Of a DNA stretch of 64,000 nucleotides, positions 1-60,841 are shown one piece after another. How positions within the stretch are numbered: position 1 is the first letter of the stretch; every line of letters starts with the position of its first letter. Both the position numbers and the translations under genes were made by a program. Source of the DNA: Escherichia phage Lindwurm; sequence record NC_134264.1; one strand, given 5' to 3'. The notes beneath the pieces are model-generated. The model did no database searches. It was not told the DNA's origin and saw nothing but the letters and a program-made list of their open reading frames with translations.

Positions 1-1317
1 ATGGAAGTATCAAGACCTTACGTTAACACAGTTGATGTTATTGATTTCGGAATAGATAAACGTTTCTTTCGTCTACCTGTTTCGGGAATACTAGCACAAG
101 AAGGTATTACACCTAATGGTCCTCAAATAGCGATTATCAATGCGCTAGAAGACCCTAGACATCGTTTTGTAACGGCGTGTGTATCACGCCGTGTGGGTAA
201 ATCCTTCATCGCATATACTCTTGGGTTCCTAAAATTGCTGGAACCCAATGTGAAGGTACTAGTAGTTGCTCCTAACTACTCACTGGCCAACATCGGATGG
301 TCTCAGATTCGTGGTCTTATTAAAAAATATGGCCTACAAACCGAACGTGAGAATGCTAAAGATAAAGAGATTGAGTTAGCTAATGGTTCTCTGTTTAAAC
401 TAGCTTCTGCGGCGCAGGCTGACTCCGCAGTTGGACGTTCATATGACTTTATCATCTTCGATGAGGCGGCAATTTCCGACGTTGGTGGTGATGCCTTTAG
501 AGTTCAGTTGCGTCCTACTCTAGATAAGCCTAATTCTAAGGCTCTATTTATCTCTACTCCTCGTGGGGGTAACTGGTTTAAAGAGTTTTATGCCTATGGA
601 TTTGATGATACATTACCTAACTGGGTATCTATTCATGGTACATATCGTGATAACCCACGTGCTGATCTGAATGACATCGAAGAAGCACGTCGTACAGTTA
701 GTAAAAACTACTTCCGCCAGGAATACGAGGCTGACTTCTCCGTATTCGAAGGTCAGATCTTCGATACCTTTAATGCTATTGATCATGTTAAAGATCTTAA
801 AGGTATGCGTCACTTCTTTAAAGATGATGAAGCATTCGAAACGTTGCTTGGTATTGACGTTGGTTATCGTGATCCTACAGCAGTTCTTACTATTAAGTAC
901 CACTATGATACAGATACCTACTATGTATTAGAAGAGTACCAGCAGGCAGAGAAAACTACAGCGCAACATGCTGCGTATATTCAGCACTGTATAGATCGTT
1001 ATAAAGTTGATCGTATTTTTGTTGACTCTGCAGCAGCTCAGTTCCGTCAGGACTTAGCTTATGAACATGAAATTGCATCAGCTCCAGCTAAAAAATCTGT
1101 CCTAGATGGTCTAGCATGTTTACAGGCACTATTCCAACAGGGAAAGATTATTGTAGACGCTTCATGCTCTTCATTAATCCATGCATTGCAGAACTACAAG
1201 TGGGATTTCCAAGAAGGTGAAGAGAAATTATCACGTGAAAAACCACGTCATGATGCTAACTCTCACCTCTGTGATGCGCTGCGCTATGGAATTTACTCTA
1301 TTTCCCGTGGTAAATAA
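1..1317 (+). CDS. terL: terminase large subunit (438 aa)
   Basis: Walker B-like DFIIFDEAA, C-terminal nuclease-like region, position before portal; length matches T5-type TerL as I recall it. Confidence 0.9.
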   Translation: MEVSRPYVNTVDVIDFGIDKRFFRLPVSGILAQEGITPNGPQIAIINALEDPRHRFVTACVSRRVGKSFIAYTLGFLKLLEPNVKVLVVAPNYSLANIGWSQIRGLIKKYGLQTERENAKDKEIELANGSLFKLASAAQADSAVGRSYDFIIFDEAAISDVGGDAFRVQLRPTLDKPNSKALFISTPRGGNWFKEFYAYGFDDTLPNWVSIHGTYRDNPRADLNDIEEARRTVSKNYFRQEYEADFSVFEGQIFDTFNAIDHVKDLKGMRHFFKDDEAFETLLGIDVGYRDPTAVLTIKYHYDTDTYYVLEEYQQAEKTTAQHAAYIQHCIDRYKVDRIFVDSAAAQFRQDLAYEHEIASAPAKKSVLDGLACLQALFQQGKIIVDASCSSLIHALQNYKWDFQEGEEKLSREKPRHDANSHLCDALRYGIYSISRGK

Positions 1318-1431
1318 ATAAGTATAGGATGGGATACTACTCAGTTGGTATCCCATTCCTGCATTTTAAAATCCCCTTTACAAATTCGATACGATTATGT
1401 ATACTATATTCATACAGTTGAGGAGAACACT

Positions 1432-1869
1432 ATGGCAAGCAATATAAAATATAAACGCGATGCTATATCCCTTATGAGAGACGGAATAAAAAGTCAATAT
1501 AAAAAAGACTCTCAATGTGCTATCTGCGGTTGTGCTGAAGAATTAGAGCTTCATCATTACCATACGGTGTCTCTACTAGTTAAAAAATTTGCTAAAGAAC
1601 TCCAACTGGATTTCACTGACGAAGAAATAGTCCTTTCAAATAGGACGGCATTCTATGATCGATATAGGCATGAGCTAGTAGAAGACACTGTTACCCTTTG
1701 TGTACACCATCACCAATTATTACATAAGGTTTACACAAAAGAACCTCCTTTATTTTCTGCTAATAAGCAAAAAGTGTGGGTTCAAAAGCAGAAAGACAAA
1801 TTACAGAATCCTCAAGAAAAGACACAAGTCAAGACTGAAACAAAATCAGGATTCGCAAGGTTCTTATAA
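1432..1869 (+). CDS. small HNH endonuclease (terminase-associated)
   Basis: CxxC...HH...CxxHH motif (CAICGC, LELHHYH, CVHHHQLLH); start moved to ATG 1432 preceded by AGGAG; lies between terminase and portal. Confidence 0.7.
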   Translation: MASNIKYKRDAISLMRDGIKSQYKKDSQCAICGCAEELELHHYHTVSLLVKKFAKELQLDFTDEEIVLSNRTAFYDRYRHELVEDTVTLCVHHHQLLHKVYTKEPPLFSANKQKVWVQKQKDKLQNPQEKTQVKTETKSGFARFL

Positions 1870-3086
1870 TGGGTTTTAAAAGCTGGATTACTGAAAAGCT
1901 AAATCCGGGTCAACGTATTATAAGAGACATGGAACCAGTTAGTCATCGCACTAACCGTAAGCCTTTTACCACTGGACAAGCCTACAGTAAAATTGAGATT
2001 CTCAATAGAACTGCTAATATGGTTATAGATAGTGCGGCAGAGTGTTCTTATACTGTCGGAGATAAATATAATATTGTCACGTATGCCAATGGCATCAAGG
2101 CAAAGACTCTAGACACTCTCTTAAATGTACGACCTAATCCATTCATGGATATAAGCACATTCCGTAGACTTGTAGTCACTGACCTACTTTTTGAAGGTTG
2201 TGCATACATCTATTGGGATGGCACAGCACTTTATCATGTCCCTGCTGCACTAATGCAAGTAGAGGCAGATGCCAATAAGTTTATCAAAAAATTTATATTT
2301 AATAATCAGATAGACTATCGCGTAGATGAGATTATCTTTATAAAGGATAACAGTTACGTGTGTGGCACAAATTCTCAAATTTCTGGACAATCTCGTGTTG
2401 CTACTGTTATTGACTCTCTTGAGAAGCGTTCTAAGATGCTTAACTTTAAAGAGAAGTTCCTCGATAACGGAACCGTGATTGGTCTTATTCTTGAGACGGA
2501 TGAAATCCTGAACAAGAAATTGCGTGAGCGTAAACAAGAAGAATTACAACTAGATTATAATCCTAGTACTGGTCAGTCCTCTGTCCTGATTCTAGATGGT
2601 GGTATGAAAGCTAAACCGTACTCCCAAATATCCTCTTTTAAAGATCTAGACTTTAAGGAAGACATTGAAGGATTTAATAAATCTATCTGTCTAGCCTTTG
2701 GTGTTCCGCAAGTGTTACTTGATGGCGGTAATAATGCGAACATTCGACCAAACATCGAACTGTTCTACTACATGACTATCATTCCTATGCTGAACAAACT
2801 GACTAGTTCTCTTACTTTCTTTTTTGGTTATAAGATTACTCCTAATACTAAGGAAGTAGCTGCATTAACACCAGATAAAGAAGCTGAGGCTAAACATTTA
2901 ACCTCATTGGTTAATAATGGTATTATGACTGGTAACGAGGCTCGTTTAGAGCTGAACCTTGAACCTTTAGATGATGAGCAGATGGATAAGATTCGTATTC
3001 CTGCTAACGTTGCTGGTTCTGCAACAGGTGTATCTGGTCAAGAAGGTGGCAGACCTCAAGGTTCCACCGAGGGAGATAAAGAATGA
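1869..3086 (+). CDS. portal protein (405 aa, T5 pb7-like)
   Basis: Size and position after terminase; start overlaps upstream stop (TAATG). Confidence 0.8.
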   Translation: MGFKSWITEKLNPGQRIIRDMEPVSHRTNRKPFTTGQAYSKIEILNRTANMVIDSAAECSYTVGDKYNIVTYANGIKAKTLDTLLNVRPNPFMDISTFRRLVVTDLLFEGCAYIYWDGTALYHVPAALMQVEADANKFIKKFIFNNQIDYRVDEIIFIKDNSYVCGTNSQISGQSRVATVIDSLEKRSKMLNFKEKFLDNGTVIGLILETDEILNKKLRERKQEELQLDYNPSTGQSSVLILDGGMKAKPYSQISSFKDLDFKEDIEGFNKSICLAFGVPQVLLDGGNNANIRPNIELFYYMTIIPMLNKLTSSLTFFFGYKITPNTKEVAALTPDKEAEAKHLTSLVNNGIMTGNEARLELNLEPLDDEQMDKIRIPANVAGSATGVSGQEGGRPQGSTEGDKE

Positions 3087-3568: not shown

Positions 3569-4201
3569 ATGACACAAGCTGCTATTGACTATAACAAGTT
3601 AAAATCAGCACCGGTTCATTTAGATGCTTATATTAAATCTATTGATAGCGAATCTAAAGAAGGTGTTGTAAAAATCCGTGGATTCGCTAATACAATTAGT
3701 AAAGATCGCGCTGGTGATGTAATTCCTGCTTCGGCATGGAAAACATCTAATGCACTTGCTAACTACATGAAAAACCCGATTATTCTTTTCGGACACGACC
3801 ATCGTCGTCCAATCGGCAAGTGTATTGATCTTAACCCTACTGAAATGGGTCTCGAAATCGAATGCGAGATCTATGAAAGTTCTGATCCGGCTATCTTTTC
3901 ACTAATTAAAAACGGTGTACTGAAAACTTTTAGTATCGGATTCCGCTGCCTAGATGCAGAGTGGGATGAAGCTACTGATATATTTATTATTAAAGATTTA
4001 GAACTATACGAAGTTTCGGTAGTTTCTGTACCTTGTAATCAGGACTCAACATTCAATCTCGCTAAGAGTATGAATGGGCATGATTACACTGAATGGCGCA
4101 AATCTTTTACTGCAATAAGTTCTAAAGCTGTCCCAGCTCAAGAACGTAATCTTTCTGAACTAGAAAAACTTGCGATAGCTTTAGGCTACGTTAAAGAATA
4201 A
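3569..4201 (+). CDS. prohead maturation protease (210 aa, T5 pb11-like)
   Basis: Position directly upstream of major capsid gene; length as recalled for T5 pb11. Confidence 0.75.
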   Translation: MTQAAIDYNKLKSAPVHLDAYIKSIDSESKEGVVKIRGFANTISKDRAGDVIPASAWKTSNALANYMKNPIILFGHDHRRPIGKCIDLNPTEMGLEIECEIYESSDPAIFSLIKNGVLKTFSIGFRCLDAEWDEATDIFIIKDLELYEVSVVSVPCNQDSTFNLAKSMNGHDYTEWRKSFTAISSKAVPAQERNLSELEKLAIALGYVKE

Positions 4202-4218
4202 CGGAGAATTATTTAAAA

Positions 4219-5595
4219 ATGACTATTGATATTAATAAGCTGAAAGAAGAACTTGGTCTGGGTGATCTGGCTAAATCTCTGGAAGGTCTGACCGCTGCTC
4301 AGAAAGCTGCTGAAGCTGAACGTATGCGTAAAGAGCAGGAAGAAAAAGAACTGGCTCGTATGAATGATCTGGTTTCTAAAGCAGTTGGCGAAGATCGTCA
4401 GAAGCTAGAAGAAGCTCTGGAACTGGTTAAATCCCTGGATGAGAAATCTAAGAAGAGCGCAGAACTATTTGCACAGACTGTAGAAAAACAGCAGGAAACT
4501 ATTGTTGGTCTTCAGGATGAAATTAAATCTCTGCTAGCAGCTCGTGAAGGCCGTTCCTTCGTTGGTGATAGTGTAGCTAAAGCACTGTATGGTACTCAGG
4601 AAGCTTTTGAAGATGAAGTTGAAAAACTGGTTCTTCTGTCTTATATGATGGAGAAGGATGTATTTGAAACTGAACATGGTAAAGCCCACGTTAAGGCTGT
4701 TAATGGTTCTTCTTCCGTTTCTATGTCTAGCGAAGCATATGAAACTATCTTCTCCACTCGTATTATCCGTGACCTGCAGAAAGAATTAGTAGTTGGCGCA
4801 CTGTTCGATGAACTGCCAATGTCCAGTAAAATTCTTACTATGCTCGTTGAACCAGAAGCTGGAAAAGCTACTTGGGTGGATGCTTCCAAATTCGGTACTG
4901 ACGAAACTGTTGGTGACGAAGTTAAAGGTACTCTGACTGAAATCAGCTTCAAAACTTACAAGCTGGCTGCTAAGTCCTTCATCACTGATGAAACTGAAGA
5001 AGATGCAATCTTCTCCCTGCTGCCTCTGCTGCGTAAGCGTCTGATCGAAGCACATGCCGTTTCTATCGAAGAAGCGTTTATGACTGGTAATGGTACTGGT
5101 CAGCCGAAAGGTCTGTTGACTCTGGCTAGTGAAGATAGTGCTAAAGTTACCACCGAAGCTAAAGCTGATGGTTCTGTACTAGTAACTGCTAAAACCATTT
5201 CTAAACTGCGTCGTAAACTGGGCCGTCATGGTCTAAAACTGAGCAAACTGGTACTGATCGTATCTATGGATGCTTATTACGATCTGCTGGAAGATGAAGA
5301 ATGGCAGGATGTTGCACAGGTTGGTAACGATGCTGTTAAACTGCAAGGTCAGGTTGGTCGTATTTATGGTCTGCCAGTTGTAGTTTCTGAGTACTTCCCA
5401 GCTAAAGCAGCAGATAAAGAATTCGCAGTTATTGTTTATAAAGATAACTTCGTAATGCCGCGTCAGCGTGCTGTTACTGTTGAACGTGAGCGCCAAGCTG
5501 GTAAACAGCGTGACGCGTACTACGTTACTCAGCGTGTTAACCTGCAACGTTACTTTGCAAATGGTGTTGTATCCGGTGCTTACGCTACCGCTTAA
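4219..5595 (+). CDS. major capsid protein (458 aa, T5 pb8-like)
   Basis: Length, N-terminal coiled-coil delta/scaffold-like segment rich in E/K, followed by strong terminator. Confidence 0.9.
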   Translation: MTIDINKLKEELGLGDLAKSLEGLTAAQKAAEAERMRKEQEEKELARMNDLVSKAVGEDRQKLEEALELVKSLDEKSKKSAELFAQTVEKQQETIVGLQDEIKSLLAAREGRSFVGDSVAKALYGTQEAFEDEVEKLVLLSYMMEKDVFETEHGKAHVKAVNGSSSVSMSSEAYETIFSTRIIRDLQKELVVGALFDELPMSSKILTMLVEPEAGKATWVDASKFGTDETVGDEVKGTLTEISFKTYKLAAKSFITDETEEDAIFSLLPLLRKRLIEAHAVSIEEAFMTGNGTGQPKGLLTLASEDSAKVTTEAKADGSVLVTAKTISKLRRKLGRHGLKLSKLVLIVSMDAYYDLLEDEEWQDVAQVGNDAVKLQGQVGRIYGLPVVVSEYFPAKAADKEFAVIVYKDNFVMPRQRAVTVERERQAGKQRDAYYVTQRVNLQRYFANGVVSGAYATA

Positions 5596-6167: not shown

Positions 6168-6934
6168 TGTCTCTTTCCGATCTAGCTAAACAAATTATTA
6201 AAGAGCAGCTAGATACTGCAGGACGATCTGAAAATAATAAGAATACTGTTGTGTACTCTGTTGAAACAGGGCTAAAAGATCCTACCAGAGATGGTACTGT
6301 TGCTCAAGTATCTTTTAAGTTTTCAAAACCTGTATCCCAAGATCTTCTTGATGTTAGAACAGCCTCTATACTAAAAGCTGTATCCTCTAGTTTAGATCTT
6401 TCGGGGGATTTAGGTGCTCTAGAAAACCTAATACAAGCAACTGCTGGTAAAAAATCCTCAGTAGGTAAAAAACGTTCTACAGGCAGAGTACAGGTAAACT
6501 TTGGAGATCCTAAAGACGTAGAGGATGGATACTCAGGTGCAATAACAGGTGCTTCCGGACGTTTCGTGTCTAATAGCAATATGAAGGTTATATTAGAGAT
6601 AGTTGCTAAAGAATACTTAATAAAGGATATGAAAAAGACAGGAGCGCCATTAAAATTTAGAACCGGTCGCTTTGCAAATTCTCTAAAAATTAAGGATGTT
6701 ATGCTTAGAGACGCAGAGACTAGTAAAGGTTCTCCTGAATTGAACGTAACATATAATTATATGACTCGTCCATATTCTGTGTTCAATCCCGCAGTATCTA
6801 CATATAGAAGATTATCTCTACGACCTTATCCTGGCGCTAGAAACCCTCAAAAACTTATTGGTGAGGCTATAGCAAAAGCTGCAAGAGACCTGATTCACTC
6901 CAGATATAAAATTAAGGTTAATCAAGGAACCTAA
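6167..6934 (+). CDS. neck/tail completion protein (putative)
   Basis: Synteny between head and tail tube genes; ATGA start/stop overlap with upstream gene. Confidence 0.4.
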   Translation: MSLSDLAKQIIKEQLDTAGRSENNKNTVVYSVETGLKDPTRDGTVAQVSFKFSKPVSQDLLDVRTASILKAVSSSLDLSGDLGALENLIQATAGKKSSVGKKRSTGRVQVNFGDPKDVEDGYSGAITGASGRFVSNSNMKVILEIVAKEYLIKDMKKTGAPLKFRTGRFANSLKIKDVMLRDAETSKGSPELNVTYNYMTRPYSVFNPAVSTYRRLSLRPYPGARNPQKLIGEAIAKAARDLIHSRYKIKVNQGT

Positions 6935-6937
6935 TAA

Positions 6938-7423
6938 ATGGACCATAGAACAAGTATTGCACAAGCTATGGTTGACCGAATCTCTAAACAAATGGATGGT
7001 TCTCAACCTGACGAATATTTTAATAACCTATACGGAAACGTTTCTCGTCAAACTTATAAATTTGAGGAAATACGAGAGTTTCCGTATGTGGCAGTTCATA
7101 TCGGAACTGAAACTGGGCAGTATCTTCCTTCGGGCCAACAGTGGATGTTTTTAGAACTTCCAATCCTGGTGTACGATAAAGAGAAAACAGACATTCAAGA
7201 GCAACTTGAAAAACTCGTAGCGGATATAAAAACCGTTATTGACACAGGTGGAAATTTAGAATATACTGTTAGTAAACCTAATGGATCGACCTTCCCATGT
7301 GAGGCAACTGATATGATCATTACATCAGTTAGTACAGATGAGGGTCTACTGGCCCCATATGGTTTAGCAGAAATAAATGTAACAGTGAGGTATCAGCCTC
7401 CACGTAGGTCACTTCGCAGATAA
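6938..7423 (+). CDS. tail completion/terminator protein (putative)
   Basis: 161 aa ORF immediately upstream of tail tube gene. Confidence 0.4.
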   Translation: MDHRTSIAQAMVDRISKQMDGSQPDEYFNNLYGNVSRQTYKFEEIREFPYVAVHIGTETGQYLPSGQQWMFLELPILVYDKEKTDIQEQLEKLVADIKTVIDTGGNLEYTVSKPNGSTFPCEATDMIITSVSTDEGLLAPYGLAEINVTVRYQPPRRSLRR

Positions 7424-43156: not shown

Positions 43157-43615
43157 TTAATTTGGATAGAGTTCGGACTTAAAATTAGCCCTAACTTTTT
43201 TAGCCTCTTCTATAGTATTGCACTGCTGGTACTTACGAATAGATCCTTTCTGCATTAGCACACAATATTTATCGCCCCTCATGTAAATATTAGGCTCGCC
43301 CAACTTATTGTCTTTACGTACATTAATATTGTGCATTTGCTTAGATCTATTGGAGTCTTCTAGATTCTCTATAAAGTTGCAATCTTTAATCCTGTTTTTG
43401 TGATCTATCTCTTCTGGTATATATCCCTTATGGTATAAGAATACCAACTGATGCTCTCCCCAGTGCCTACGCTTAAACCCTATTCTTATATACCCTTTAT
43501 GTTTACCACCGGCAAACTTACCTACTAGACCCTTCTGTCTTGTTTTCTTCCATTTAAGGTGGCCTGTTTCAGGATCATACTCAAAAGCCTCTCTAACCTC
43601 TTCCTGTGTTATCAT
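43157..43615 (-). CDS. HNH homing endonuclease (152 aa)
   Basis: YDPETG...FLYHKGYIPEEIDHKNRIKDCNFIENL; paralog of 59013..59561. Confidence 0.8.
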   Translation of the reverse strand: MITQEEVREAFEYDPETGHLKWKKTRQKGLVGKFAGGKHKGYIRIGFKRRHWGEHQLVFLYHKGYIPEEIDHKNRIKDCNFIENLEDSNRSKQMHNINVRKDNKLGEPNIYMRGDKYCVLMQKGSIRKYQQCNTIEEAKKVRANFKSELYPN

Positions 43616-43853
43616 TTTCTTTAATCAATTCTCCCAATTCTCTATAGATTTGATCTAACTCAAAAGATATACGTAGTGATACACTTTGCTTTCTCTGCTT
43701 TAGCAACCATGCGCCTATGCCATTTATGGATGCTAGTCTAGCAGGAACCACCCTACATAGCTTCTCCGTAGTATCATAAACAGGAACTTTACGTTCTTTT
43801 ACTGGGAACTTCCTTGTTTCCCATTTTTTATTCTTCACTGTCATTTCTAGCAC
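43593..43853 (-). CDS. hypothetical small protein (86 aa)
   Basis: ORF overlapping both neighbours; weak. Confidence 0.3.
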   Translation of the reverse strand: MLEMTVKNKKWETRKFPVKERKVPVYDTTEKLCRVVPARLASINGIGAWLLKQRKQSVSLRISFELDQIYRELGELIKENDNTGRG

Positions 43854-55915: not shown

Positions 55916-55924
55916 TAAAAACAA

Positions 55925-55951
55925 GGAGATCTTCGGGTCTCCTTTTTCTTT
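55925..55951 (+). terminator. rho-independent terminator after nrdA (UUCG loop)
   Basis: GGAGATC-TTCG-GGTCTCC then TTTTTCTTT. Confidence 0.8.
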
Positions 55952-55961
55952 GAAATTTTAC

Positions 55962-55990
55962 TTGCTAATCGCTACCAGATTTGCTATAAT
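55962..55990 (+). promoter_or_regulatory. sigma70-like promoter upstream of nrdB (TTGCTA-17-TATAAT)
   Basis: Direct read. Confidence 0.7.
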
Positions 55991-56021
55991 ATTCCTGAAA
56001 TAGTGAGAAAGAGGAAAATCA

Positions 56022-57167: not shown

Positions 57168-57697
57168 TAACGGCATTATATGCAGTTGGGCCGAATGGGG
57201 AGTTCGGCCTCCGAGGTAAACTCCCCTGGGGTTCCTTCAGAGAAGAACTAGATGCTTTCTACTCTCAACTGGACGTGTTGAACCCAGATAACATCATCAT
57301 TGGTGCGGGTACTTATTTAGCACTTCCAGAAGTTGTTCGGCAACGTATGATTGGAGAATCTGACCTCTTTATTCGTGCGGATCGTCCTCTGCCTGATGAT
57401 ATTAAACATGGTATCTATACCCCAATTTCAAAGATTGGGGATACATTACCTACGTTCTTAAAAGATCAGCAGACAGTGGTTTTAGGTGGTGCAACATTAC
57501 TGTACGAAATGTATATTCATGGACATATTGAAAGTGCTTTTGTATCCACAATCTTTAGTACTCAAAAACTAGAGGCAGATGTATATCTGGATAATACGAT
57601 TCTAGATTACAACTATGAATCTACTCGTTTAGTTTACGCAACTGGCGCAAACAGTGATAACAGCCTGCGATTTGTACAGGAATTGGTTACTTATTAA
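57164..57697 (+). CDS. folA: dihydrofolate reductase
   Basis: GKLPW motif, GGATLLYEMY region; located immediately upstream of thyA. Confidence 0.8.
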   Translation: MITALYAVGPNGEFGLRGKLPWGSFREELDAFYSQLDVLNPDNIIIGAGTYLALPEVVRQRMIGESDLFIRADRPLPDDIKHGIYTPISKIGDTLPTFLKDQQTVVLGGATLLYEMYIHGHIESAFVSTIFSTQKLEADVYLDNTILDYNYESTRLVYATGANSDNSLRFVQELVTY

Positions 57698-58536
57698 TGC
57701 AACAATATTTAAAAATTCTAACAGATGTAATTTTACTGGGTGAACCACGTAACGATCGTACAGGGACAGGCACGGTTTCAATTTTTGATTCCTATGCTAA
57801 GTTCGACCTACGTGAAGGATTTCCCGCCGTAACCACTAAACGTCTAGCTTGGAAATCAGTAGTTGGAGAACTCCTATGGTTTTTATCTGGATCTACAAAT
57901 CTCCATGATCTGCGAGTATTCACATTTGGGCGTGACGAAGGACAGTGGACTATCTGGACTCCAAATTATGAAGACCAAGCTATAAGTATGGGCTATGACA
58001 ACGGTAATCTAGGACCAGTATATGGTAAACAGTGGCGTAACTTTGGCGGACGAGATCAGATTCTAGAACTCATTGAGGGTCTCAAGAATAATCCACATGG
58101 TCGTAGACACCTAGTATCTGCATGGAACGTAGCTGAACTGGATAAGATGGCATTACCACCATGTCACTATGGTTTCCAATGTTACGTAAGTAATGATGGA
58201 TACTTAGACCTTAAATGGACACAACGTTCTGTAGACTGTTTTCTAGGCCTACCTTTCAATATTGCTAGTTATGCTTTATTAACACATATCCTAGCAAAAT
58301 TGACTGGATTAAAACCTCGTTATCTCATCTTTAGTGGTGGAGATACACATATCTACAGTGATCATATAGAGCAAGTAGAGGAGCAAATGAAACGTAAACC
58401 ACGTCCTTTGCCAACTCTAGTAATGCCAGAGTTTGTAGATCTCTATGATTTATTAGAGAATAATACTGCGGCTTGGTCTTTCAAGCTGGAAGGGTATGAT
58501 CCGCATCCAGCTCTTAAAGCTAAAATGTCCTCTTAA
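57697..58536 (+). CDS. thyA: thymidylate synthase
   Basis: NDRTGTGT, LLWFLSG, catalytic PPCH motif. Confidence 0.9.
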   Translation: MQQYLKILTDVILLGEPRNDRTGTGTVSIFDSYAKFDLREGFPAVTTKRLAWKSVVGELLWFLSGSTNLHDLRVFTFGRDEGQWTIWTPNYEDQAISMGYDNGNLGPVYGKQWRNFGGRDQILELIEGLKNNPHGRRHLVSAWNVAELDKMALPPCHYGFQCYVSNDGYLDLKWTQRSVDCFLGLPFNIASYALLTHILAKLTGLKPRYLIFSGGDTHIYSDHIEQVEEQMKRKPRPLPTLVMPEFVDLYDLLENNTAAWSFKLEGYDPHPALKAKMSS

Positions 58537-58542
58537 CTTAAG

Positions 58543-58567
58543 TAGCCCTTCGGGGCTATTATATTTG
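58543..58567 (+). terminator. rho-independent terminator after thyA (UUCG loop)
   Basis: TAGCCC-TTCG-GGGCTA then T-rich tract. Confidence 0.7.
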
Positions 58568-58576
58568 AAATTGTAC

Positions 58577-58606
58577 TTGCTTATTAAGTACAATTTCAAA
58601 TATAAT
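58577..58606 (+). promoter_or_regulatory. sigma70-like promoter (TTGCTT-18-TATAAT) embedded in a 12-bp-arm palindrome
   Basis: GAAATTGTACTT gcttatt AAGTACAATTTC spans 58567..58597 and overlaps the -35 element. Confidence 0.6.
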
Positions 58607-58635
58607 ATACTCAATAAGTACAAAAGGATAATAAA

Positions 58636-58698
58636 ATGAGTAGAGAAATTGAATTAGAACAAGCCCTTCTGAATTTACTCCAATTACTTGCAGGGTGA
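58636..58698 (+). CDS. short leader ORF (20 aa) with strong RBS; +1-frame ORF overlaps its 3' end
   Basis: AAAAGGATAATAAAATG with promoter upstream; stop TGA at 58696-58698. Confidence 0.3.
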   Translation: MSREIELEQALLNLLQLLAG

Positions 58699-59020
58699 TA
58701 AAGAAACTATTACTAAGGAACAGGTATTATTAATACTAGACTCTATCACTTCTAAATTCAGGACTTTAGAAGACTACTACTCTGTAGGCAATGGAGATGA
58801 GAAGGTAGAGTTATGTCTAAATCTCCTAGAAGATATGGGTTGGGATGAGGAAGATCAAGTAGGATATTTAGGTATATCTACAGAAATTCTAGAAAATACA
58901 GAGCATGAAAATATACTTGAAGTAAAGAGCAGAAGTGCTATTCGGTATAATACTTATGGTACAGGTATTACAGGAATAAAAGCATTACTTAGTATAGATA
59001 TAGGATGGTTAGATGAATAA
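58688..59020 (+). CDS. hypothetical protein (110 aa; TTG start in track; frame open from 58673)
   Basis: No independent RBS; may be expressed by +1 frameshift from leader ORF or may be a frameshifted gene. Confidence 0.4.
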   Translation: MQGDKETITKEQVLLILDSITSKFRTLEDYYSVGNGDEKVELCLNLLEDMGWDEEDQVGYLGISTEILENTEHENILEVKSRSAIRYNTYGTGITGIKALLSIDIGWLDE

Positions 59021-59561
59021 AAAGTTACCTAGCCAAGAAAGATTAAAAGAATTATTAATCTATGATCCAGATACCGGTATATTTACTAATAAGGTAAGTC
59101 GTGGTAGGGGAGGAAAAGCAGGTTCACCCGCTGGATACCTAAGAAAAGATGGCTATATAACTATTAAGATAGATAAAATAGATTATTTAGCACATAGACT
59201 AGCCTTTCTATACATGACAGGATCAATACCAGATTTAATAGACCACAAAAATAGGATTAGGTCAGATAATAGGTGGATAAACCTAAGAGAAGCTACAAGC
59301 CAGTCTAATAATAGAAACTGTACCGCATCGAGTAAATCTGGATATCTAGGTGTACACTGGAACAAACAATTACAGAAATGGCAAGTACAGGTGATTGATA
59401 ATAAAGGTAAAAATATTTATGGGGGTGTTTTTGACTACTTAGACCTAGAAAGTGCGGTCATAAAGGCTAATGAACTGAGAAAAACACTTCATGGTAGCGA
59501 AGCAGTTATAGAAGATTTCTATACTAACTATTACCCACCAGTAGAGGAACTTAATAAGTGA
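59013..59561 (+). CDS. HNH homing endonuclease with AP2-like C-terminal DNA-binding region
   Basis: YDPDTG...FLYMTGSIPDLIDHKNRIRSDNRWINLREAT; GYLGVHW...KWQ; between thyA and rnhA. Confidence 0.8.
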   Translation: MNKKLPSQERLKELLIYDPDTGIFTNKVSRGRGGKAGSPAGYLRKDGYITIKIDKIDYLAHRLAFLYMTGSIPDLIDHKNRIRSDNRWINLREATSQSNNRNCTASSKSGYLGVHWNKQLQKWQVQVIDNKGKNIYGGVFDYLDLESAVIKANELRKTLHGSEAVIEDFYTNYYPPVEELNK

Positions 59562-60034
59562 GCGTTTTCCACATTTACACAGATGGTGCTTGTAAGTCTA
59601 ACCCAGGTCCAGGTGCTTGGGGTTTTATTGTCTATGATGATAACGACGATCGTTTAGGTTCTAAATCTGGTTATAATCCTAAAACTACAAATAATGAGAT
59701 GGAACTCACAGCTATTGTAGAAGCTCTACGTTGGTCTGTTAAAAAAGATAATAGACCAATTGCTATCTATACTGACTCTGCTTATTGCAAAAACGGCATG
59801 GAAAGTTGGATGTTTTCTTGGCAAAGGAAAGGCTGGAAGAAAGCAGATGGTGAAGTTCCTCTTAATCTAGAACTTTGGCAGGAAGCATTTAAATTAACAC
59901 AGCAGTATATCAACTTTCATAATACTAATCCTACCTTTATTAAGGTTAAAGGACATTCTGGTATTAGTGGTAATGAAGCTGTAGATGCATTGTGTAATAC
60001 TGTTATTACTGAGCAAGAACTTGCCGAGATGTGA
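59558..60034 (+). CDS. rnhA: ribonuclease H (RNase HI-type)
   Basis: YTDGACKSNPGPGAWG, ELTAI, YTDS, HSGISGNEAVDAL motifs. Confidence 0.85.
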   Translation: MSVFHIYTDGACKSNPGPGAWGFIVYDDNDDRLGSKSGYNPKTTNNEMELTAIVEALRWSVKKDNRPIAIYTDSAYCKNGMESWMFSWQRKGWKKADGEVPLNLELWQEAFKLTQQYINFHNTNPTFIKVKGHSGISGNEAVDALCNTVITEQELAEM

Positions 60035-60110: not shown

Positions 60111-60395
60111 ATGCGGATTTATAACTCAAATTCATTAGGATTTAAACCATTGAGAAAACGTGCACAATCACCTCGTCAAATAAGAAAGGCTAATATTGGT
60201 GAGCCAGAGACACGACTTCCACCTCCTCCAGAACAACGTTTAGTTTATCTGGACGAAGAATTAGCGGAACGCGAAAGAAAAGCTCAAGAAGAGATTGAGC
60301 GTAAGAAAATGTGTACTGCTCCAGCCTACTCCAAAGGGGCTTATCAGTATATCTATACAGCCGAGGAGGCTAAAGATGCGGGGCGTAAAAAATGA
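60111..60395 (+). CDS. hypothetical basic/Pro-rich protein (94 aa), coupled to NADAR gene
   Basis: Promoter 60055..60083 and GAGGAG RBS; stop overlaps NADAR start (ATGA). Confidence 0.5.
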   Translation: MRIYNSNSLGFKPLRKRAQSPRQIRKANIGEPETRLPPPPEQRLVYLDEELAERERKAQEEIERKKMCTAPAYSKGAYQYIYTAEEAKDAGRKK

Positions 60396-60841
60396 AGATT
60401 ACCGAATTTAAAGGTACTTATAGTTTCTTATCTAACTTTTATTTATCACCAATCACTTTCGAATACCTAAACGAGATATGGCATGCTGATACTGTAGAAC
60501 ATGCTTTTCAGGCTATGAAATCCGACCAAAAAGATGATGTAGCTCATGTACTGCGCTCCCTAAATGCAGGAGTTGCCAAACGTAGAGGACGTAAATTAAC
60601 TCTACGCTCTGACTGGGATAAGGTAAAAGATGATGTAATGCTAGAGCTTTTACGGTTAAAGTTTGCAATACCTGATTTGAGAGACAAACTGTTAGCAACA
60701 AAAAATGCAACTTTGATCGAAGGAAATACCTGGGGAGATACATATTGGGGTGTTTGTCGAGGCATCGGGGATAATACTCTAGGTGTTCTTTTGATGCAGG
60801 TAAGGTCTGAAATTAAAAGAAGCTTACAGTTAATAAATTAA
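60392..60841 (+). CDS. NADAR (YbiA-like, DUF1768) family protein
   Basis: FLSNF, EHAFQAMK, KFA..LRDKLLAT, YWGVCRGIGDNTLGVLLM motifs align with E. coli YbiA as recalled. Confidence 0.75.
   Translation: MKITEFKGTYSFLSNFYLSPITFEYLNEIWHADTVEHAFQAMKSDQKDDVAHVLRSLNAGVAKRRGRKLTLRSDWDKVKDDVMLELLRLKFAIPDLRDKLLATKNATLIEGNTWGDTYWGVCRGIGDNTLGVLLMQVRSEIKRSLQLIN

Follow-up and report, generated by a model that had tools for sequence, protein, structure and literature searches.

A likely I-HmuI-type homing endonuclease gene in a mobile cassette between thyA and rnhA of T5-like phages

Described relatives of the HNH gene

[quoted passage not shown] The protein encoded at 59013..59561 of the DNA analysed here (a stretch of 64,000 nucleotides, hereafter the window) shares with I-HmuI (PDB 1u3e) the core of HNH_3 enzymes, or His-Me finger group 2, with its DH...N...N motif. 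An N-terminal beta-sheet DNA-binding region is likewise present in both. However, the gene in the window is free-standing, whereas I-HmuI is encoded inside a group I intron, and the two proteins are only ~17% identical. They also differ in their C-terminal DNA-binding module, which is of the AP2 type in the window protein and helical/HTH in I-HmuI. The nick-initiated gene conversion of I-HmuI may by analogy apply to the window gene as well.

HNH_3 combined with AP2 is a recognised homing-endonuclease architecture, placed in group 2 of the His-Me finger classification (PMC5714182). The window protein has the two-domain architecture of the HNH-AP2 homing endonucleases (Magnani et al., 2004; Wessler, 2005; both as cited in PMC5714182), with an AP2 match that lies below the Pfam gathering score. 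A further comparison is offered by the seg and mob genes of phage T4. These are intergenic selfish nuclease genes that co-convert neighbouring markers in mixed infections, and SegB gives preferential inheritance in such infections (PMC2330249). Their co-conversion provides a model for possible hitch-hiking of the open reading frame upstream of our HNH gene (ORF127, see below). The T4 enzymes are of other kinds, GIY-YIG for seg and HNH group 1 for mob, and have no sequence relationship to the window protein.

T5 itself is reported to encode the F-Tfl endonucleases F-TflI, II and IV, reportedly described by Akulenko et al. in 2004. Like the gene studied here, F-Tfl genes encode free-standing site-specific endonucleases of T5-like phages, although our knowledge of their properties is second-hand. 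A protein annotated as F-TflVIII (Gostya9/DT57C) is 61% identical to the window enzyme, and both end in LEELNK*, overlapping the start of the next gene. In contrast, F-Tfl genes occupy other sites, either in the tRNA region or in the early region near a phosphatase gene, and F-TflIV belongs to another HNH group.

The window is, judged from its gene matches, that of a T5-like phage (Tequintavirus), because each flanking gene matches Demerecviridae records at >90% nucleotide identity. Differences between T5-like genomes have been traced mainly to homing endonuclease genes (PMC10644984); T5 has nine of them and phage Stitch none (PMC4319617). The gene at 59013..59561 is of a known kind, and dozens of T5-like genomes already carry it under the annotation HNH (homing) endonuclease. 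The 'HNH endonuclease' of Salmonella phage Stp1 matches its product at 100% identity and the 'HNH homing endonuclease' of VSe12 at 99.5%, and identical or near-identical genes under these names occur in Stp1, VSe12, SA001, fp01, SSP1 and phiLLS. In BF23 the ortholog is hegE (WLW40698.1; 82% amino acid identity, equal length), which lies in the same gene order as in the window, i.e., thy, a hypothetical ORF, HNH and rnh. Nothing substantive differs between the window and the loci of the Stp1, VSe12 and BF23 type, except for a +1 T frameshift of ORF127 that is found in the window alone.

Architecture of the HNH gene and its locus

An earlier note on this DNA listed two related HNH genes, and both open reading frames are present on the strands and at the positions given in Table 1. 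The motifs that it found common to the two proteins are indeed there in both translations (YDPDTG / YDPETG, FLYMTGSIPDLIDHKNRI / FLYHKGYIPEEIDHKNRI, and N..NL), and BLASTP supports their paralogy (39% identity over 108 aa, E 7e-18).

Table 1. Features of the window discussed in the text.
Feature	Position	Strand	Basis or remark
Conserved late-region HNH gene, homolog of T5 nicking endonuclease T5p149	1432..1869	+	adjoins terminase large subunit; outside the mobile element
Second, distantly paralogous HNH_3 homing endonuclease gene (copy 2), 152 aa	43157..43615	-	Pfam HNH_3, PHROG 99, BLASTP
Small conserved ORF, homolog of T5p108	43593..43853		
thyA (thymidylate synthase), conserved left flank	57697..58536	+	Pfam Thymidylat_synt, E 7e-94
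Terminator-like hairpin of thyA	58543-58558	+	alignments with T5, PH204, phiP4, BF23
Early promoter, -35 TTGCTT and -10 TATAAT	58577-58582 and 58601-58606	+	homology to T5/BF23 elements
ORF127, orphan 127-aa ORF, acidic, pI 4.4	58636..59020	+	phrog_26840; always accompanies the HNH gene at the thy-rnh site
Free-standing HNH_3 + AP2 homing endonuclease gene, 182 aa	59013..59561	+	Pfam, PHROG, profile, AF2 model
Conserved HNH 3' end, GAGGAACTTAATAAGTGA	59544..59561	+	comparison of eight genes
rnhA (RNase H), conserved right flank	59558..60034	+	Pfam RNase_H, E 2.7e-32

The nuclease assignment is clear. The protein matches Pfam HNH_3 (PF13392; E 9.6e-14) with 51.2 bits, above the gathering score of 24.8 bits, as well as PHROG 99, 'HNH endonuclease' (E 3.5e-64). 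Its catalytic core consists of D77-H78, N86 and N90. A search of 5.8 billion proteins retrieved 2310 homologs, and in an alignment of 91 of these D77, H78 and N90 were invariant and N86 nearly so. The same D77, H78 and N90 are kept in all five HNH lineages at the thy-rnh site, and also in copy 2. A profile of the 91 homologs matched I-HmuI (1u3e; E 2.1e-7), with the DH...N...N motif aligned onto VDHKDGNKDNNLSTNLR.

The AP2-like domain, at about residues 108-163, required more than a single sequence. On its own the window protein scores 13.8 bits against Pfam AP2 (PF00847), below the gathering score of 33.3 bits (E 0.075). The profile of the 91 homologs matched the AP2 domains of WRI1 (E 2.3e-8) and TEM1 (E 3.4e-4), and 53 of the 91 homologs match the AP2 domain individually at E<=0.001. 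The AlphaFold2 model of the protein (mean pLDDT 91.1) has strands at 114-117, 122-128 and 134-140 and a helix at 142-163 (DSSP). This C-terminal sheet-plus-helix (~108-163) fits AtERF1 (1gcc; TMt 0.75, rmsd 1.7 Å, 60 columns) and also superposes on TEM1 and ERF96. In a Foldseek search with the whole model, the best PDB match was I-HmuI (1u3e_M; E 6.9e-4, probability 1.00); the low global TM of 0.38 to 1u3e is expected for an extended multi-domain protein. Hence, the AP2-like tail described in the earlier note is real, as the family profile, the homolog matches and the superposition on AP2 structures attest, even though the Pfam match of the single sequence is weak.

Every HNH copy that we examined has its full length and its catalytic residues, and the dN/dS of 0.08-0.21 indicates purifying selection. 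From these features, the enzyme is very probably active.

The gene is intergenic, outside any intron or intein. It lies between ORF127 and rnhA, with overlapping stop and start codons, and the flanking genes are intact. The earlier note was thus right about its location between thyA and rnhA, but the HNH gene does not stand there alone, because the ORF at 58636/58688..59020 lies directly upstream and overlaps it by 8 nt. The promoter in front of these two genes was assigned by homology to annotated T5 and BF23 elements; the T5 annotation names the homologous element early promoter T5P27, that of BF23 calls it terminator/promoter, and our scan for promoters and terminators showed no enrichment over shuffled sequences. 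This early promoter, at 58577-58606, would drive both the cassette and rnhA.

ORF127 has few relatives. Among 50,697 phage records it was found in exactly the 35 that bear the cassette. The search of 5.8 billion proteins yielded 37 homologs, all from T5-like phages; the full-length ones have 127-128 aa, and two are short (61 and 68 aa). A HMMER profile search of 1.84 billion representatives recovered its own cluster plus one marginal repetitive match (E 5e-5), with no credible remote homolog. The protein has no Pfam or NCBIfam match, and its PHROG family is of unknown function. Its AlphaFold2 model is poor (pLDDT 64), and a Foldseek search of BFVD with this model found its own family alone. 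With a dN/dS of 0.07-0.25, ORF127 is under purifying selection. In the window its frame is broken by an extra T at 58674-58676, so that the frame that opens with ATG 58636 runs into TGA 58696-58698, and what is left is a 110-aa ORF from TTG 58688 to 59020, which provides the overlap with the HNH start. The corresponding segment has 925 nt in the window and 924 nt in every related record, and these records have an intact ORF127. The extra T may represent either a sequencing error or a fresh inactivation.

Allelic states and horizontal spread of the cassette

A megablast search located the thyA-rnhA interval in 232 phage records, in 31 of which at least 80% of it was covered. The cassette of ORF127 and HNH is present in 35 records, ~8% of T5-like phages, for which we used the 441 T5-like records with the terminase region as comparison. 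A presence/absence comparison across T5-like genomes, as recommended in the earlier note, hence yielded a sporadic pattern for both HNH genes, with 35 records of ~441 for the thy-rnh gene and 34 of 468 for copy 2.

Sequence comparison revealed at least five allelic states of the thy-rnh site. In the empty allele of T5, the thy stop codon is followed by the terminator hairpin, T5P27 and a 133-bp leader straight into rnh; Shivani, DT57C and SHSML-45 also have this empty allele (1450-bp spans). The other alleles contain one 93-aa ORF (PH204), a 60-aa plus a 93-aa ORF (phiP4), the 127-aa ORF plus HNH (this window, BF23 and 33 other records), or an HNH gene alone (GEC_vB_N7, with 53% amino acid identity to the window enzyme). 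The alleles diverge directly after the -10 region, at window position 58611, and rejoin at the rnhA start codon at 59558. We also considered simple insertion of the HNH gene into an empty site. This model was rejected, since most relatives carry other small ORFs here and the site is truly empty only in T5-type genomes.

The second HNH gene is a different case. Copy 2 (Pfam HNH_3, E 2.3e-10, 40.4 bits vs a cut-off of 24.8; PHROG 99, E 2.2e-42) is a clean insertion of ~455 bp between the small conserved ORF and the D3 promoter, and most genomes without it have a span of 1563 bp vs 2017 bp. In its 3' part (43616-43750), the small ORF differs strongly from its counterparts in genomes with an empty site and resembles that of the HNH-bearing Sw2. 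A co-converted or target-immune flank usually looks like this. In T5, a different HNH_3 gene (24-26% identity) lies beyond the other end of this small ORF, which makes the region a hot spot. Copy 2 probably keeps a putative degenerate AP2-like tail; the C-terminal family alignment (hhalign) is not independent in this respect, as copy 2 is itself among the aligned sequences.

At the thy-rnh site, the identity to the window shifts abruptly at the cassette borders (Table 2), which fits gene conversion, as suggested in the earlier note, or horizontal spread. Compared with other HNH-bearing genomes, dS is 0.02-0.18 for the cassette or HNH gene and 0.58-0.77 for thyA. The thyA genes closest to that of the window (94-99%) are from phiP4 and PH204, which lack the cassette. 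The cassette is thus, on sequence divergence, much younger than its flanks, which is the footprint of horizontal spread.

Table 2. Identity (%) to the window along the locus in four HNH-bearing genomes.
Segment	VSe12	NG_A1	phiLLS	BUCT632
thyA	90.0	88.2	90.1	52.7
Intergenic	99.0	98.0	98.0	97.0
ORF127	99.7	98.4	97.3	97.1
HNH	99.4	99.6	95.6	98.7
rnhA	95.0	95.0	95.6	96.6

There are also breakpoints within the cassette. The left part of NR01 is window-like (thyA dS 0.15; ORF127 99% at the amino acid level), whereas its HNH (62% aa) and rnhA (dS 1.1) are of foreign origin; a breakpoint thus falls at the ORF127/HNH junction. In BF23 we see this too, with 96.5% nucleotide identity to the window in ORF127 vs 74.9% in HNH. 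Hence, a single ORF127 allele (>=96% aa, i.e., at least that identity) is found upstream of three HNH lineages that are 100%, 82% and 62% identical to the window enzyme. Nuclease genes reportedly coincide with the borders of genetic exchange (Barth et al., 2023, as cited in PMC10644984 and PMC12639943). The cassette mosaic matches this pattern and the published role of homing endonucleases in differences among T5-like phages.

Could such a mosaic arise without a nuclease? Because the cassette replaces other small ORFs in most genomes, ordinary homologous recombination at the conserved flanks could generate the mosaic, with the HNH protein as an inactive passenger or an AP2 DNA-binding regulator. 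Cassettes without a nuclease (the 93-aa and 60-aa ORFs) indeed alternate at the thy-rnh site too, and a nearby indel, the ybiA-like gene at 60392..60841, has no nuclease either. Yet, D77, H78 and N90 are invariant in the 91 homologs and in all five lineages at the site, every copy is full length and under purifying selection, and the breakpoints fall at the borders of the HNH gene, namely at the ORF127/HNH junction (NR01, BF23) and at the rnhA start (many genomes). We therefore regard an inactive or merely regulatory HNH protein as very improbable.

The right border of the variable cassette is the 5' end of rnhA, and many records match the query only from its position 1868, which is 59564 in the window. 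This 5' end may be the region of the putative endonuclease target. The HNH gene and rnhA are tightly joined here. The Shine-Dalgarno motif GAGGAA lies in the 3' end of the HNH gene, GAGGAACTTAATAAGTGA, at a distance of 8 nt from the start of rnhA, and the HNH stop codon TGA overlaps the rnhA start codon GTG at 59558. A GAGGAAYTWAATARRTGA end, encoding LEELN(K/R)*, was found in eight genes, which represent five HNH lineages and occupy two unrelated sites in the genome. One of them is the 61%-identical Gostya9 gene annotated as 'HNH nicking homing endonuclease F-TflVIII', and each of the eight overlaps the ATG or GTG of the next gene. Translational coupling to rnhA is thus built into the 3' end of the HNH gene.

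The first codons of rnhA also differ between alleles. Codon 2 is AGC in the window and AGY in all HNH-bearing alleles, whereas it is TCG or TCA in all alleles without HNH; all of these encode Ser. AGY accommodates the ATGA/GTGA overlap of stop and start codons. In BF23, NR01, DaisyDussoix and N7, the next seven codons are much substituted in comparison with cassette-free alleles, nearly all synonymously. Conversely, rnhA of the window is identical to cassette-free alleles from codon 3 onwards, and that of VSe12 likewise looks cassette-free; both phages are recombinant. These differences suggest that the recognition site may span the leader and the rnhA start. A target wholly inside rnhA would, given this identity from codon 3, leave the window phage without self-immunity, a point against homing. 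These junction details are a new, minor addition to what was known of the gene.

Possibly, the mobile unit is an obligate cassette of two genes, with ORF127 as nuclease partner or beneficial cargo and GAGGAAYTWAATARRTGA as a portable adaptor. We consider this extension of the homing hypothesis unlikely. If it were true, ORF127 could act as a partner, e.g., as an inhibitor or self-protection factor or as an aid to specificity, or be a cargo such as an anti-defence protein spread by the nuclease. The adaptor would let an HNH lineage land exactly on start codons, leaving the downstream gene unsilenced.

Nicking, homing and the biology of T5-like phages

The earlier note went on to name HNH enzymes of this kind as candidates for making the nicks of T5-type genomes. 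According to this explanation, the HNH_3 enzymes at 59013 and 43157 would introduce the strand-specific nicks of T5-type virion DNA. Enzymes of the I-HmuI type are natural nickases, and the 'nicking' annotation of the Gostya9 paralog (F-TflVIII, 61% identical) points in the same direction. However, the gene is missing at this site from T5, the reference nicked phage, and is present in only ~8% of T5-like records. Moreover, the nicking (sci) genes sciA and sciB were mapped to the late region (PMC3517423), while 59013..59561 lies in an early operon. A role of 59013..59561 as genome nickase was therefore rejected, and we judge it exceedingly improbable for enzymes of this kind.

The earlier note also listed a third small HNH gene beside the terminase gene, which is present and matches a nicking endonuclease in the PDB. 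The product of ORF 1432..1869 matches 9qgv_A/9qgx_A, 'Nicking endonuclease', over its full length (E 1e-80), with 121 of 145 residues identical. Apart from H42Q, 9qgv/9qgx has the sequence of T5p149, with which the window protein shares 83% identity. Homologs were found in 433 of the 441 T5-like records, often annotated as 'nicking (site-specific) endonuclease'. The assignment of T5p149 as a nickase comes from the PDB molecule name, the GenBank annotations and the phage Key paper. Enzymes of the T5p149 type are Cys/His-rich (CAICG...CVHHH), near-universal in T5-like phages and encoded by a late gene beside the terminase gene. T5p149 and the 59013..59561 protein are both of the HNH type, but show no detectable sequence similarity, and a PDB search with the latter gave no match to 9qgv. 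T5p152, which adjoins the terminase gene, is annotated as 'probable sciB'. Since 59013..59561 is absent from T5 at this site, rare and expressed early, we assign the nicking role to 1432..1869; the earlier note listed the right gene but attached the idea of nicking to the wrong one.

As a separate observation, the published consensus of the major T5 nicks, R/GCGCRGG, occurs four times in the window, always on the plus strand. The chance expectation for both strands together is 1.9, and 10 of 100 shuffled sequences reach four, which makes this count suggestive only.

We consider it likely that 59013..59561 is a selfish homing gene of the I-HmuI type, with HNH_3 and AP2 domains, in a mobile ORF127-HNH cassette in the 5' leader of rnhA. 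The cassette of ORF127 and HNH is lodged downstream of the thy terminator and the early promoter. In our proposed mechanism, for which I-HmuI and T4 seg and mob serve as analogies, the enzyme would bind DNA early in a mixed infection, using its AP2 module and its N-terminal beta-sheet module. Its binding site, long and degenerate, would lie at the thy-rnh junction, or close to it, in a co-infecting phage without the cassette, and the enzyme would nick or cut there. Repair by recombination, with the HNH-bearing genome as donor, would then transfer the cassette together with neighbouring sequence to the recipient. The carrier itself would be protected because the insertion and the altered 5' codons of rnhA disrupt its own site. 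By this analogy, I-HmuI-like gene conversion, initiated by a nick or a break, most likely spreads the cassette in mixed infections.

Strong purifying selection on the HNH gene would also fit a function that is useful to the phage. For instance, the nuclease might be kept mainly because it excludes or degrades competing T5-like genomes, or helps to degrade host DNA. The low dN/dS (0.08-0.21) and the predicted early expression from a T5-type early promoter agree with this alternative. Furthermore, expression of the T5 pre-early HNH protein HegG on its own is toxic and leads to compaction of, or damage to, host DNA (bioRxiv 10.64898/2026.04.02.716235), and T4 SegB shows how a nuclease gene can be preferentially inherited in mixed infection (PMC2330249). 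In contrast, the gene is dispensable, as it is absent from ~90% of relatives, including T5, and the AP2 domain, within an extended DNA-binding architecture, speaks for a long specific site and against bulk degradation. Exclusion of markers, moreover, is the same mechanism as homing. A nuclease kept mainly for phage benefit therefore seems improbable to us, and we retain selfish homing as our explanation.

These results have several implications for T5-like phages. The question of the T5 nicks is better directed at ORF 1432..1869 than at 59013..59561. In phylogenies and recombination analyses of Tequintavirus, the thy-rnh and D2-D3 sites should be masked. Finally, the thy-rnh site, which occurs in five allelic states, with one ORF127 allele followed by three HNH lineages and with a switch between Ser codon families, offers a natural series for intron-less homing by an HNH-AP2 enzyme.

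The HNH gene and its upstream ORF

The closest paralogs of the HNH gene between thyA and rnhA are found in the phages Gostya9 and Th1, where they occupy an unrelated site in the early region and encode products with 61–62% amino acid identity to the window HNH. They share with it the overlapping start/stop codon architecture and likewise the 3′ end LEELNK* / GAGGAA..TAAATGA. The 3′ end thus moves together with the gene.

ORF127, the 127-aa orphan ORF directly upstream (58636..59020), carries one additional T at 58674..58676 compared to all 34 related records. This extra T shifts the reading frame, such that translation from the ATG at 58636 runs to a TGA at 58696. Either the additional base is an error of sequencing, or the ORF was inactivated recently.

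Features in the window and in relatives. Coordinates in relatives refer to the sequences numbered L.
Feature	Location	Strand	Remark
ybiA-like gene, 149 aa	window 60392..60841	+	presence/absence among relatives
Second thyA allele	BUCT632 (L008) 4046..4900; GEC_vB_N7 (L013) 1046..1900; vB_Sen-E22 (L014) 1266..2120
Small HNH adjoining terminase	window 1432..1869	+	homolog of T5 nicking endonuclease
Closest paralog lineage	Gostya9 (L015) 1492..2028; Th1 (L016) 1513..2049
Small ORF, T5p108 counterpart in D2-D3 interval	window 43593..43853
T5 D2-D3 HNH, 166 aa	T5 AY692264 (L009) 1491..1991
Endonuclease gene between nrdA and nrdB	phiLLS (L007) 1885..2385; T5 AY587007 (L004) 6457..6981

Mosaic patches around thyA and rnhA

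A second Tequintavirus allele of thyA (855 nt versus 840) has only ~53% nucleotide identity to the window thyA, and high identity returns at the thyA stop codon, adjoining the variable site. Another presence/absence polymorphism, 800 bp downstream, involves the ybiA-like gene and contains no nuclease gene. The ybiA-like gene is also present in phiP4 and PH204, and is missing from VSe12, NG_A1, phiLLS, BUCT632 and BF23 (alignment gap 60437–60837). Upstream of frd (dihydrofolate reductase gene), nrdB is 95–98% identical to VSe12 and NG_A1; within frd (57237..57636) identity drops to 78–86%, a further mosaic patch with which no indel is associated.

The terminase-adjacent HNH

The product of the small HNH gene adjoining the terminase gene is 83% identical to PDB 9qgv/9qgx, the sequence of T5p149 with H42Q, and the gene is near-universal (433 of 441 T5-like records). 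In T5, JLBYU43 and SP15, among other relatives, an additional endonuclease gene of ~720 bp separates the nicking-endonuclease homolog from the terminase; the window lacks this gene. The published T5 major-nick consensus, RGCGCRGG, has four matches in the window (411, 15315, 27764 and 33477), all on the + strand and none on the − strand. The chance expectation is ~1.9 for the two strands together, and four matches were reached in 10 of 100 shuffled sequences. These matches are possible nick sites of the terminase-adjacent enzyme.

Other endonuclease insertion sites

Yet another endonuclease gene occupies the nrdA/nrdB interval of phiLLS and T5; in the window these two genes are separated by just 106 bp (55916..56021). 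A second hot spot is the D2-D3 interval. The T5 HNH in this interval differs from the second window copy at 43157..43615 (24–26% identical) and has its insertion point on the D2 side of T5p108, the small ORF. In the window and in Sw2 the HNH lies on the D3 side of the small ORF, while VSe12 has no HNH on either side.
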